A DNA stretch of 64,000 nucleotides, taken from contig NC_083279.1 of assembly GCF_963506605.1 (NCBI RefSeq), positions 63,116,001-63,180,000 of the forward strand, written 5' to 3'. Below, in pieces: positions 51,190 to 61,146 of the stretch. The position numbers and the translations under genes are program-made. This DNA is from Zootoca vivipara (lineage: Eukaryota). The notes under the pieces are model-generated. The model was not told where the DNA came from. It was given only the letters and a program-made list of their open reading frames with translations, and searched no databases. Position 1 is the stretch's first letter; each line of letters starts with the position of its first letter.

Positions 51190-51700
51190 CAGCTGCGGCA
51201 AGGCGCTTTTCCAAAGTGCTCCCTGTTTACGCTCCTGCTGGAGCCTGGGAGTATTTCGAGGCCCTTCACTTGAGACTGCTTCGCCCTGACAGCAGCTCCC
51301 CTGGACTCGGCCGCGTTCCTTCCCAGCCTCCTGCCCCTCACGGCCCGCAACAATGGCTGTGAGGTGGGAGTGGGCGTCACAATGGGCGAGAAAATGTGGG
51401 CAGAGGCAGAAAGATGGGCGCCGTGTCCACGACGGCAGCAGGCGGCGCTCCGGGGAAGCGCAAGAGCTTTGCCGCCCGCGATCCTGGACTATGGTTGGCG
51501 GTGGCTTTCGTTCTGGGCCCGTGTGAGTTCTCCTGGTATTTTCCGCCTATGCGGGAGGGGGGGGAGGGAAAGAGGGCGGGGAAAGCGCCTAGCCGCGCCC
51601 CCTTTGCTGGGGTTCGTGCTCGCTCCGGCCTTGAAAGAAAGGGGAAGCGGTTGGCCGGTCCAGATGCAAGATCGCTGGAAGAAGAAGGCTATTTATGAGC
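51190..51700 (+). promoter_or_regulatory. CpG island / promoter of MPZL1-like paralog A
   Basis: GC- and CpG-rich region around exon 1; CAATGG motifs and AAGATGG at the start codon. Confidence 0.65.
51414..51522 (+). CDS. MPZL1: MPZL1-like paralog A exon 1 (signal peptide)
   Basis: MGAVSTTAAGGAPGKRKSFAARDPGLWLAVAFVLGP + T|GTGAGT, phase 1, in a CpG island. Confidence 0.8.
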
Positions 51701-52370
51701 GGCAGCTCAGGGTAGAGGAGGATGGCACGTTGTGACCCCTCTTTGGTTGCGCGTGTCTCAGTACCATACATACACCCTCGACAATCCCCTCCTTGCACAC
51801 GTGCTGAACACATACAAAGGAAACCTGCAATCCTTAAATAGGTTTACAGAATCCACTGTATTCAATGGGATTAAATGTGCTTCGGACCAAGGGGAGAAGT
51901 ATAGAAATCTATACAAATCTGAGGTTCTGCCCCCCCCCCAACAAAAATCCTGGCCACGCCCATGCTTCAGATTAAAGCATTCTTGGACCATTCTCTAGTC
52001 TACGCCTTTCCCCCCTAAAAAGTAAAATCTTGGAAACTGGGAGGTGTCACTTCAACCTCCTGGTTTTCTGTATTTACTTTTGTTGCTTTATTTTCAGTAA
52101 CTCATGGAACACAGTAAAATGAATAGTCACAGAATTTTTATTATTTTTTATTTTGGAAGCAGTTTGCAGTTTTGCACCAGAGTTCCTCGCTAAGATTGTA
52201 TATGCACTTGTAACTCAAATCAGGACCTAGAAACTGCAAAAATGGTACTGAGAACCCATTTCCTTAAGTGTCCCTTCAGTTAGAGCACTGAAACCCTGAA
52301 TAGCACAGTTTAGCAGTTCTAACAAGCCGGGTACAGAATAGGCCAGTATCTAAGCAAGAGGACATGTACA

Positions 52371-52465
52371 TAGGGTTGCCATATTTCAAAAAGTAAAAAC
52401 CAGGACACCCTGAAACTTGTTGAGCTTTTTAAACTCCAGGAAAATCTGGGCGTATGGCAACCCTA
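52371..52465. mobile_element. hAT (Tip100-like) MITE
   Basis: TAGGGTTGCCATA...TATGGCAACCCTA; TSD CATGTACA/CATGTACT. Confidence 0.85.
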
Positions 52466-53221
52466 CATGTACTGTACCAGCAACCCTACATGTACTGTAC
52501 CCTACATGTACAGGTACCAGTACATGCAATTTCACAGCATGTTTAGGATTTTTGTTTTCATATTTATTTATAATGGATTGAACTAACATTAATTACTTAA
52601 AGATAAACTTGTTGCAGGCTTATAAAGGCCCAAAGTTTGATGCATCTGAGAAACCAAAGCACTGGTACAATCTGGGGAAAAAAGAGTTTAACTTTTGCTG
52701 CATGATATGGTAGAAATGTGGTTTTAGTATCTCTGGTCTGTTACCGTAATAAGTCGATTCACTCAAATGTGGTTCTAGATTTTCCCCTTAGTTTTGTTAT
52801 TGCAGATTAGTTTGATTCTTGGAAAATTAACTTTTGAGCTCAGTCCCGTGCAAATCTAGAAGGACTTTTACCTCATTATTTTTCATATAATGAAATCTAT
52901 TTTGGTGAAAGAGCCCTGTGCAGAAATATCTTCTCCAGCGTTCAGTTTTATTCCACATTTCAGGAAGTGTGCCAAACTTCAATATAAAATGACAACAGAG
53001 TACCAAATAAAATCAAAGTTAGAAACCAAAAATATAATGAGAACAGTAATGCAGATATTTTGTGTCTGTGGAACCAAAAGAGTTGTGATGTCTGTTACCT
53101 GTAGTAATCAGCTTGAGATGCTTTCATAATGGACAGCATATCCATATATAAAAACAAATCTTTATGCACAGGTTTGTCTTGCTCTGCATGTTTAAAAACT
53201 GTAATTTTGTTGCTTACAAAG

Positions 53222-53418
53222 GGACGCGGATGGCATCTTGTTCTTTAACAATCGATATCACAGCTAATGAAGAAGTGTCCTCACCAACACAACTCATTGT
53301 GGGGATTGGGGCAGATGTAATGCTTCCATGCACATTCAGGTCATCAGAGGAAATCACCAGTGCAACATCTGTTACGTGGAGCTTTCAACCAGAGGGATCA
53401 AAGGCTCGTCCCATACCA
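53222..53418 (+). CDS. MPZL1: MPZL1-like paralog A exon 2 (N-terminal half of Ig V-set domain)
   Basis: EVSSPTQLIVGIGADVMLPCTFRSS...TSVTWSFQPEG |GTAAGA, phase 0. Two in-frame phase-1 acceptors are possible (53222 or 53264). Confidence 0.88.
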
Positions 53419-54262
53419 GTAAGAGTTAATGTCTGAGCTAATGTCGTTTTGCATAAGAATTTGTGGTGAATTTGGATTACATGTTTTGACAGCGCTACCT
53501 TAATTTTATCTTATGGAAACAATTTATTGTGTACTCTGGAATGACAGCACTTCAGCACTTTTCCTGCAGTGTCATAAAAAAAAATGTAGCCTTTGTGCCA
53601 TTTTATTCACATCATTATTCACTTGGTCCTGCCTCTTTATTTCCTCAATATCACATGGTGTGTCTCTTTGTAGCCTCTTAATAGATGTGTTCTTGCTCCT
53701 AAAACTCAAGTATTTGATGAACAATCCCAATTCCATGCATGTTCACTTTGGAAGTAAGTTCAGAAGGACTTATTCCGAAGTATCTGTACTGTACGATTGC
53801 AATCTGAATCTTCAAAATTCCCCACCCAACTCCCCAGTTTTGTTTCTGCTTTGTCTCCTTTGTCCTTTAACAAATCTGTCTGTAGGAGCTTGCAGCTTGG
53901 GGTATGCAGGGTTGATCACTGACTCTCTCCCTCTCTCCTTCAGATTTATTTGAAGTTCTCTATCTCACTTTCTGCTATAGTGCCCAAGGTGGCACTTTTC
54001 CTTTCCACTTCACTGCATGGCCATCTATTGATATCTTAGGTCTTAGAAATGGTAACTCTTGTATGTATGTGGGGTAGTGTGTCTGAGTGGAGGGATTTTT
54101 CAGGTAAAACCATATAGCCTCGGCTCTGGAATTTGCTGACTGACAGCTGCAATCCTGGGCATATATAATTTTTGTATTATTATTTTTAAACAAATACAAA
54201 TACAATAACCATTAAACACTTATCCAGCAGCACAACTAATGGTGTTCGTTTATATATACATA

Positions 54263-54488
54263 CAGTGGTACATCGGGTTAAGAACTTAATTAATTCTGGA
54301 GGTCCATTCTTAACCTGAAACTATTCTTAACCCGAGGTACCACTTTAGCTAATGGGGCCTCCCACTGCTGCTACGCCACCACTGCACGATTTCTGTTCTC
54401 ATCCTGAGGTAAAGTTCTTAACCCAAAGTACTATTTCTGGGTTAGCGGAGTCTGTAACCTGAAGTGTCTGTAACCCGAGGTACCACTG
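54263..54488. mobile_element. Tc1/mariner (Tigger-like) MITE
   Basis: TA|CAGTGGTACATCGGGTTA...TAACCCGAGGTACCACTG|TA. Confidence 0.88.
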
Positions 54489-59295: not shown

Positions 59296-59385
59296 CATAG
59301 CTGCCAAGTTTTCCCTTTTCTCGCGAGGAAGCCTATTCAGCATAATGGAAAATCCCTTTAAAAAAGGGATAACTTGGCAGCTATG
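59296..59385. mobile_element. 90-bp hAT MITE (family C)
   Basis: CATAGCTGCCAAG...CTTGGCAGCTATG; TSD CACTTCCC. Confidence 0.88.
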
Positions 59386-59669
59386 CACTTCCCATTAGCC
59401 TTTTTAGTCTGGATCTCTTGTCAAATAAACAATTTACTATGATTTCCTTTTGTAGAACATTCTTGGGTAAATAAACTTCGAGAAGGACAAATGTGATAAC
59501 AGAATACAGACAGTACTGGCTGGTGTTCAACCAGTAAGTTCAATGGGGACGTGTAGAGAGGCAAGTCTCCATTGCTCAGCTTAACCACTTCATGTGCTTT
59601 TTGTGAAGCTGAGCACACAAAAAGGTTGTTGGGCTTCCCCCAAATTTTTCTAACCCAGTGTTTCCAAAA

Positions 59670-59898
59670 CTTGTGGCTGGAATAAAACTCCCCTACGACG
59701 AATGCTTAGAACAGTGTTTCCCAAACTTGGGTCGCCAGCTGGTTTTGGACTACAACTCCCATCACCGCTAGCTTGCAGGACCAGTGGTCAGGGATGATGG
59801 GAAATGTAGTACCCCCCCCAAAAAAGAGCTGGCGACCCAAGTTTGGGAAACACTCTTTCTAAGCATTCGTCGTAGGGGAGTTTTATTCCCGCCACAAG
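59670..59898. repeat. Extended inverted repeat centred on a hAT MITE (59712-59855)
   Basis: Arms of ~71 bp (59670-59740 vs 59827-59898); the outer ~42 bp lie outside the MITE TIR. Confidence 0.88.
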
Positions 59899-60138
59899 GT
59901 CAGTTTCCTGAACCGTTTCCCTGCTGTCTCCCTTCGGAGTTTCAGCGCCCACAACTGCGCGCACGATTCGAGGGCAACTGCCCCCTTGGTTGGCAAAGGG
60001 CGTCGTGCTTTGGGCACTTTGACTTTCGCGCCAGCTGCCGGACTCGACGGCGTCGCTTTGCCTCCCGCCCCCTAGCAATGGCTGTGAGGTGGGCGGCGGC
60101 GCAACAATGGGGCGGAGAGGGTGTCCGGAGGCAGAAGG

Positions 60139-60256
60139 ATGGCTGCCGTGTCCACTGCCGCAGCAACCGGCGGCCCGGGGAAGCGAAAGAGGCAGAGCTC
60201 TTTCCCCGCCGCCGCGCCCGCCCTCTGCCTGGCGCTGGCTTTGGCTCTGGGCCACG
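60139..60256 (+). CDS. MPZL1: MPZL1-like paralog B exon 1 (signal peptide); remainder expected beyond the window
   Basis: MAAVSTAAATGGPGKRKRQSSFPAAAPALCLALALALGH + G|GTGAGG, phase 1. Promoter, exon and intron start are homologous to 51300-52670. Confidence 0.75.
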
Positions 60257-61146
60257 GTGAGGGCTGCCGCTCTTCACCGTCTCCGCTGGAGCGCGCGGGA
60301 ATGGCGAGAGGGCGGGGCAAGCGCCTCCCGGGCGGGGAGCAAAACTTCTTTTGGGTGGGGAAAGAGAGGTCGCTTCGAGGGCGGAGCAGCGGTTGGTCCT
60401 GTTAAGGACGATCTCTGGGCTGCGGCGGGCAATCTTAGTACTGTAACTGCAGACCCTCGGCGTTCCGTCTTGGTGCAGTGTGTCCGGCTCATATGCCGAG
60501 GACTTGTAAATGAAGCTTGCAATCCTGAACAGGTTTACGGAGTCCATTGTATTAATTGGGACTTACTTCTGAGAAACTGTGCTTTGGATTCCAGGTTTCT
60601 TTGACCATTCTCTAGTCTATGTATTTTTATATACAGTATATAATCACCAAAAAGGAAAATCTTGGGAACTTAATTATAAATTGGGCAGCCAATTCCACAG
60701 CGCTAGACTTGTATCTTAAGAATAGTTTTTTTAAAAAGAGAGTAATGAAACATTTGTGAACGAAAATCCTGATAGTACAATGTGAAATTGGATGTGCTCT
60801 ACTTCTGATGGAATGAGCTAATATCAATTAGTTTAAAATAAATTTGCTGCATGCTTTTAAAGTCCCAAAGTTTGATCCATCAAAGAAGCTCTCAGTACTG
60901 AGCACCAGTACAGAATGAAAATGCATCCAATTATCTCTGGAAACTCATGCCCATATAAATTCATGTGTCCAATTGACAAATATCCCCTTTATTAGAAGTA
61001 AATATTTTGTTATGTGAGATTCAGAAAAACAAATGAAGGCTGGCTCAGTAGCTGCGAAATGTCTTGTGTGTGTTTTTCTATGTGCACATTAGCTGCTGCA
61101 GGAACAGGTTCATTTGGGAACTGTTCTAGTTACAGGTAGGTAGCCG

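Follow-up and report, generated by a model that had tools for sequence, protein, structure and literature searches.

We analysed a stretch of 64,000 nucleotides of the Zootoca vivipara genome (contig NC_083279.1, positions 63,116,001 to 63,180,000 of the forward strand; the window), together with 40 kb upstream and 160 kb downstream, 264 kb in all. This region harbours two intact paralogs of MPZL1 that are under selection, here called copies A and C, which lack the transmembrane exon and the exon with immunoreceptor tyrosine-based inhibitory motifs (ITIMs) found in the canonical MPZL1 gene (copy D) further downstream. Both end in a short hydrophobic tail, and their products are probably non-signalling surface proteins with a putative glycosylphosphatidylinositol (GPI) anchor. 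Copy A lies wholly inside the window; neither its completeness nor its GPI-like tail was noted in the original prediction, which had been made from the window alone and proposed a tandem expansion of MPZL1-like genes. Positions beyond 64000 carry on the window numbering and are called extended; adding 63116000 gives the contig position. The features of the three genes are the following.

51414-55491, plus strand: copy A, intact, three exons, 227 amino acids, predicted signal peptide and V-set domain
51278-51522, plus strand: A exon 1 with CpG island and phase-1 donor; coding starts at 51414 with a predicted signal peptide
53222-53418, plus strand: A exon 2, completing the predicted signal peptide and opening the V-set (first half)
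55114-55491, plus strand: A exon 3, second V-set half to about 55323, Ser/Thr/Ala-rich stalk, tail, stop
55426-55488, plus strand: hydrophobic terminal 21 codons of A, within exon 3
55493-55498, plus strand: A poly(A) signal AATAAA, 2 nt past the stop
60139-66581, plus strand: copy C, intact, three exons, 205 amino acids, predicted signal peptide and V-set domain
60139-60256, plus strand: coding part of C exon 1, CpG island, predicted signal peptide
60257-64000, continuing past the window end, plus strand: C intron 1
extended 64549-64742, plus strand: C exon 2
extended 66276-66581, plus strand: C exon 3, V-set half, short spacer, hydrophobic tail like that of A
extended 66583, plus strand: C poly(A) signal AATAAA, 2 nt past the stop, placed as in A
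extended 81960-113277, plus strand: copy D, canonical MPZL1, V-set exons matched at 101683/102158
from extended 103675, plus strand: transmembrane exon, in D alone
from extended 113176, plus strand: D ITIM exon (VIYAQL, VVYADI)

Three MPZL1-type genes between RCSD1 and MPC2

The gene order is RCSD1, copy A, an orphan exon (B), copy C, copy D and MPC2, with a match to the RCSD1-type domain CAP-ZIP_m at window position 36109 and an MPC exon match at extended 124964. In mammals the order is RCSD1-MPZL1-MPC2, and A, C and D all lie inside the corresponding interval. When the Zootoca genome was searched for V-set exons with the exons of A, MPZL1-like copies were found on this contig at 53224/55114, 64557/66276 and 101683/102158; all remaining matches were 26-43% identical and located on other contigs. 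The cluster is closed, with three V-set genes between RCSD1 and MPC2.

The original prediction held that the promoter, exon 1 and proximal intron at 51300-52670 recur at 60030-60920, and this was borne out by a local alignment score of 323.5 (75% over 570 aligned columns), compared to no more than 50 in 60 block shuffles. All five sequence blocks that it quoted are present in both copies (51351/60076, 51826/60518, 51840/60531, 51986/60603 and 52629/60864), two short ones also occurring elsewhere in the window, and the quoted peptide MxAVSTxAAxGxPGKRK starts at 51414 in A and at 60139 in C. The third exon 1 that it placed on the minus strand is real (ATG at 58524) and distant from A and C. Of the claim of at least three exon-1 modules in 9 kb, the number stands, as three modules exist, but only A and C head genes, B being an orphan. 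V-set exons were looked for after 60256 and found at extended 64549 and 66276, and a search for a downstream ITIM exon led only to D, at 113176. The proposal of an old, diversifying cluster of one signalling gene and non-signalling paralogs is thus supported at the level of gene anatomy.

The duplication is real. Identity between segments of A and C is 71-91%, and Podarcis has orthologues of both copies. In two public runs, possibly from the sample that was itself assembled, DNA-type contigs agree with the unique stretches of both copies with 0-1 differences, at a flat, low depth of about 3-8. Together these observations reject an assembly artefact, the alternative named beforehand. The last 103 nt of intron 2 (55011-55113; extended 66168-66275) are 91% identical between A and C, whereas the other segments reach 71-85%; either gene conversion or an element conserved for the sake of the terminal exon could account for this.

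The tail-type copies belong to the MPZ/P0 family and, within it, to the MPZL1 lineage. They match the Pfam V-set domain (PF07686) above the cut-off, their best match in the PDB is human MPZL1 (6IGO), both by sequence (E 1e-33) and by fold, and the V domains of A and C are about 60% identical to that of D. Their first exon is homologous to MPZL1 exon 1, and a basic n-region and hydrophobic core can be recognised by eye. The copies part at the end of the V domain. In D, a phase-1 donor follows the last V-set strand, and a transmembrane exon with a basic border is present; A and C have neither. At MPZL1's donor position A exon 3 has no donor and the frame runs on into the hydrophobic C-terminus, and C exon 3 likewise has no phase-1 donor at the end of the V domain. 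No hydrophobic exon-like frame was found after A or C. The Ser/Thr/Ala-rich stalk is found in A only, whereas C has a short spacer. Within the 264 kb the ITIMs VIYAQL and VVYADI occur only at 113182 and 113248, both in D.

Transcripts and gene models

Removal of both A introns is seen in contigs of run X1, which, like run X2, we presume to be RNA: GT..AG joints connect 51522 to 53222, in a contig covering 51278-51522, and 53418 to 55114. The first joint is also present in one raw RNA read (run X20). Another X1 contig is continuous through A exon 3 from 55114 to 55527, and no splice joint leaving A exon 3 was found in the RNA-type contig set. No RNA record was listed as matching A exon 3. For C, the expression data consist of one 163-nt RNA-type contig in exon 3. 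The spliced A product is identical, letter for letter, to the RefSeq model P0135 ('myelin protein zero-like protein 1 [Zootoca vivipara]'), so the gene is already annotated, under a generic name; tail-type proteins appear in the databases as plain 'MPZL1'.

Some automatic database models (P0136, P0125 and P0133) fuse neighbouring paralogs into a multi-domain protein, and the MPZL1 models annotated for turtles and frogs include two-domain ones, as would be expected if A, C and D all contributed exons to a single long multi-Ig MPZL1 transcript. This is highly improbable, since each of the copies comes with a separate CpG island, signal exon, stop and AATAAA, the V domains of A and C lack the canonical phase-1 donor, the RNA-type contig passes straight through A exon 3 to 55527, and the P0136 junction runs from mid-exon to mid-exon. 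The three fused models are likely mis-annotations, and the findings correct them.

The 5′ leaders of A and C contain three (within 51353-51394) and two (within 60078-60107) upstream ATGs, respectively. All are out of frame and overlap the main frame, while those of D are in frame. The upstream ATGs of A and C may damp translation.

Selection on the tail and its distribution in squamates

The tail is under purifying selection. Over its 21 codons A and C differ by 7 synonymous and 3 non-synonymous changes, a ratio of non-synonymous to synonymous rates (dN/dS) of 0.08 (Fisher p 5e-4, with rounded numbers of sites). For the same two sequences, the only ones in this comparison, dN/dS is 0.50 in the V domain and 0.74 in its exon-2 part.

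To follow the tail across species, we assembled 288 proteins from three homologue searches (one with 120 of 406 matches listed), a representative search (150 of 1379 listed) and two cluster look-ups. The tail pattern was found in 37 of them, or 36 after removal of one false match, a bat MPZL2. The named species among these 36 proteins are 17 squamates, from skinks to pythons: Lerista, Hemicordylus, Podarcis (three species), Zootoca, Rhineura, Salvator, Varanus, Elgaria, Anolis, Sceloporus, Phrynosoma, Pogona, Phrynocephalus, Python and Candoia. None was found in tuatara, turtle, bird, gecko or colubroid sequences among the matches listed. In a V-domain tree, calculated without the long branch of Gouania, 23 tail sequences fall on one side and 28 others, including tuatara, turtles, birds and Polypterus, on the other (support 100/99). 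The tail-type proteins form one squamate clade, and its composition implies that this gene type arose at or before the split between skinks and Episquamata, about 170-190 million years ago.

Two gecko MPZL1-like proteins that lack ITIMs (P0149 and P0150) were considered as tail-type candidates and rejected, as they fall outside the tail clade. Among the matches listed, the colubroid sequences (P0046, P0048, P0051, P0068 and P0069) are of the canonical type only, while python and boa have the tail gene; a loss in advanced snakes is possible. Other, independent MPZL1 duplications appear in unverified database models (P0149, P0150, P0106, P0112, P0118, P0088, P0031, P0111 and P0009), comprising the ITIM-less gecko copies and copies of Podarcis, Lacerta and Hemicordylus with a coiled-coil-like end exon. 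Tandem V-set MPZL1 models, also unverified, occur in pit vipers, turtles and frogs. Judged from these models, the MPZL1 locus seems to be prone to duplication.

Over 11 species pairs, the mean V-domain identity was 0.64 for tail genes and 0.86 for MPZL1, and in 12 of 12 comparisons the identity to this locus was lower for the tail genes. This faster change is compatible with a new function as well as with relaxed constraint. Three tail genes exist in Podarcis (A, C1 and C2), whereas this genome has A and C1, the latter being copy C, orthologous to P. muralis P0026. A further lacertid duplication would have given rise to A, C1 and C2, of which Zootoca would have retained A and a fast-changing C1. 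A 54-nt inverted relic of a tail-type exon 3 in C intron 1 (extended 64107-64160, minus strand) is possibly a trace of the C2 paralog retained in Podarcis.

Putative membrane anchor

We compared 20 tail proteins with 8 canonical MPZL1 proteins. The tails have 0-8 residues beyond the best hydrophobic 19-mer, and canonical proteins 23-123. No charge is present in the last 20 residues of 14 of the 20 tails, one in 5 and two in 1. The best Kyte-Doolittle mean is 1.08-2.21 in tails and 2.32-3.36 in canonical proteins. The tails thus form a moderately hydrophobic C-terminal segment without a charged cytoplasmic tail. Copy A has an A-S-G triplet 30 residues before its C-terminus, about 10 ahead of the hydrophobic part; the textbook layout of a GPI signal is a pair of small residues at omega and omega+2, followed by a polar spacer of about 10 residues and a hydrophobic end. 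In C, the only omega-site candidate is A-R-A. The AlphaFold model of the Podarcis orthologue P0001 has a confident V-set domain matching 6IGO (E 4e-15), a disordered stalk of low confidence and a terminal helix (210-226), also of low confidence. Probably, then, A and C are GPI-anchored: the precursor would be cleaved at a small residue about 26-30 amino acids from the end (A-S-G in A) and the GPI transferred to it. Anchored in this way, the proteins would serve as adhesion molecules, or compete with the ITIM receptor for ligand binding. A predicted complex between the V domains of A and D scored 0.36, compared to 0.24 for the control, which we count neither for nor against binding.

Several observations weigh against reading A and C as functional, GPI-anchored genes. 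Raw RNA depth on A is near zero in two runs, of which 6% of the reads were sampled, and no splice joint of C was found among the joints listed. Copy C lacks the S-S-G site of its Podarcis orthologues, has KIPPD in place of the otherwise invariant KNPPD, and sits on a long branch (0.21 versus 0-0.008); by these sequence features it may be decaying. When Gouania is included, the full tree needs two changes, and the support in a 26-row tree is 87. A loose omega-site rule accepts all 20 tails, yet 7 of the 8 canonical ends satisfy it as well, so it is not specific. The tail sequence is highly conserved, with a W, a Cys-Cys pair and a terminal Y/F-L-F; GPI signals are usually less conserved in sequence, so such conservation suits a retained helix. 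Finally, horse CEACAMs with stops in the membrane exon are predicted to be transmembrane and not GPI-anchored, according to PMC5856374.

The last two points favour the alternative that the tail is a marginal transmembrane helix with about 5 cytoplasmic residues, as does the 17-residue predicted helix. The proteins would then be integral membrane proteins, still without ITIMs; the Cys-Cys pair would possibly be palmitoylated and the terminal Y-L-F possibly a sorting or PDZ-type motif. We regard this as unlikely, though the strongest competitor on anchoring: the tails are less hydrophobic than every canonical membrane segment compared, contain Pro or Gln inside the segment, and have no basic cluster after it. 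It is very unlikely that the tail is too weak for either anchor, so that the proteins are secreted as soluble V-set domains, or held in the endoplasmic reticulum and degraded. Insertion energies on the biological scale are indeed positive for 19 of 20 tails, but a dN/dS of 0.08 is unexpected for a functionless tail, which moreover persists in 17 species at near-constant length from the S-G motif.

Origin of the tail

That the tail is encoded in the same exon as the V domain implies either that intron 3 is read through, or that intron 3 was lost and exon 4 remodelled. The tail genes would have begun as a tandem duplicate that carried only exons 1-3 of MPZL1 and arose before skinks parted from the lacertid-toxicoferan lineage. 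We mildly favour that the exon-3 donor was then lost and that intron 3 was read through to a new stop and poly(A) signal. In-frame D intron 3 scores 20.5 against a position-specific scoring matrix (PSSM) of the tail, a value reached by 29 of 1500 background sequences (top 2%), which is a weak signal. A hidden Markov model gave no support, as 1614 of 11715 scored as high. At the DNA level, the A tail aligns to D intron 3 with a score of 43, above 500 of 500 shuffles. Three real windows (two loci) among 3516 score 44-45 against the A tail, however, and the C tail has no match, so the DNA support for an intron-3 origin is weak.

The tail may instead stem from the transmembrane exon, in the manner of the CEACAMs, with intron 3 lost; this is the less likely course. 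The C tails of Podarcis start with K-E-N-I/M-P, and MPZL1 exon 4 of frog, turtle and tuatara with K/R-E/D-N-L-P. Yet the profile-profile score of tail and exon 4 is 8.6, compared to 9.4 with shuffled columns, where 37 of 60 shuffles did as well, and the PSSM score is 14.6, reached by 374 of 1500 background sequences. Deep divergence could hide a kinship with exon 4.

Orphan exon B and a transposon carrying MPZL1 exon 1

Between A and C lie an orphan exon and several relics.

56578-57498, plus strand: segmental relic of the DNA upstream of D, 69-83% to extended 69065-74769
58145-58210, plus strand: 66-bp direct repeat, 97% identical to 59930-59995
58216-58692, minus strand: B, orphan inverted copy of the canonical MPZL1 promoter, exon 1 (about 58524-58389) and intron 1 start
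58757-59630, plus strand: relic of D intron 1, 69-80% to extended 96112-97126

B is 92% identical to D exon 1 (extended 81999-82324) over 329 nt, with the donor GTGGGT, not GTGAGT. No V-set exon turned up behind B when the genome itself was searched with the V-set exons of A. In its 5′ leader, B agrees with transposon-borne copies and with P. muralis P0118, which holds a V-set but no membrane segment, and not with D. The pair of 66-bp repeats flanks B and a neighbouring segment, and the best genome matches of 56578-57498 are in the DNA upstream of D. B is best read as a remnant of a separate, younger lacertid duplicate. We rejected that it is a transposon copy, as no exact terminal-repeat motif was found in the 264 kb and B has more promoter than the dispersed copies, and that it is exon 1 of an intact minus-strand gene, as no V-set exon was found there and the coiled-coil end of Podarcis P0112 is unmatched. 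Contigs of X1 and X2 over 58001-58333 are strandless and may be DNA.

A genome search with B gave 37 matches, comprising B, D (two) and 30 dispersed loci; these counts are lower bounds. At least 25 of the dispersed loci hold more than 130 nt and 5 hold 56 nt. The 25 loci are elements of 1-2 kb with terminal inverted repeats (TIRs), in most cases with a 73-bp minisatellite, and they lie on many contigs (L044, L046-L068 and L072; for instance L067:646-2414). The MPZL1 sequence that they have captured, from exon 1 and intron 1, is up to 827 nt long and 81-90% identical to D, with a leader of the B type and not of the D type. Both element ends lie within the retrieved DNA at 18 of the 25 loci (4 were left unscored), and 15 of these 18 have TA on both sides, which we take as a pointer to the Tc1/mariner superfamily. 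About 2700 candidates for the element terminus exist genome-wide. With inverted repeats, a target-site duplication, captured host DNA and independent sites, this element is a multicopy Pack-TIR. PMC8277862 describes four multicopy families, in frog and alligator, among 370 Pack-TIRs of 100 reference genomes. The present element resembles them as a TIR element that carries a GC-rich piece of a host gene and sits at many places with differing flanks, and differs in its at least 25 loci in one lizard. Multicopy Pack-TIRs are rare in animals, and this one spreads a first exon rich in CpG.

C intron 1 contains an insertion (61147-63272) of 2.1 kb with an A-rich end, flanks of an 18-bp direct repeat and a 167-amino-acid acidic frame. 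Similar RNA-type contigs are about 4% different, from which it probably belongs to a retroelement family.

Comparison with known systems

MPZL1 is generally regarded as one SHP-2-docking receptor without sister genes. An unrecognised squamate sister gene of MPZL1 has been conserved for long under a generic name, signalling having been swapped for a probable lipid anchor. The tail genes offer a test case for the origin of a new membrane anchor after duplication; together with MPZL1 they may form a paired-receptor system that acts in the immunity or adhesion of reptiles. We found no description of squamate MPZL1 paralogs in the literature searched, which left most subscription journals outside its coverage. 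MPZL1 is named as the sole close homologue of P0 (PMC7465998). The human protein has two SHP-2-binding ITIMs (PMC10292906), and a human adenovirus E3 protein binds and activates it (PMC4858740), which makes a decoy role plausible. It is conceivable, although improbable, that the GPI signal was made de novo from MPZL1 intron 3 and that the protein is a sheddable, fast-evolving decoy, kept since the Jurassic, that traps pathogen proteins targeting MPZL1. If so, the myelin P0 family would gain its first lipid-anchored member, and the change of an intron into a membrane-anchor signal could here be dated.

A and C share with MPZL1 (PZR) the signal exon, a two-exon V-set with matching boundaries, the NPPD motif and the RCSD1-MPC2 interval. 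They differ in lacking the transmembrane exon and the ITIMs, in their new stalk and terminal tail, and in four near-fixed V-domain substitutions of the tail genes. Thy-1, a single V-set protein with a GPI anchor, has the same overall layout, and its Atlas cluster is the nearest by features (0.93, 185 shared), a lead only, obtained without a control; a search with the tail alone gave no usable match. No sign of kinship beyond the Ig fold was seen, and the tail proteins match MPZL1 best.

The closest parallel is CEACAM5-8 beside CEACAM1, where, according to PMC2832619 and PMC5856374, a duplicate of an ITIM-bearing Ig receptor likewise lacks signalling and has a hydrophobic end without a charged border; a decoy or shedding role has been proposed there for the GPI forms. 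The CEACAM GPI signals come from stops in a separate transmembrane exon, whereas here the tail lies inside the V-set exon, has no measurable likeness to exon 4, and is a putative GPI signal. The lizard cluster is also small (2-3 genes), with one orthologue stable across squamates. The system is therefore CEACAM5/6-like in its logic, but not in the origin of its exon.

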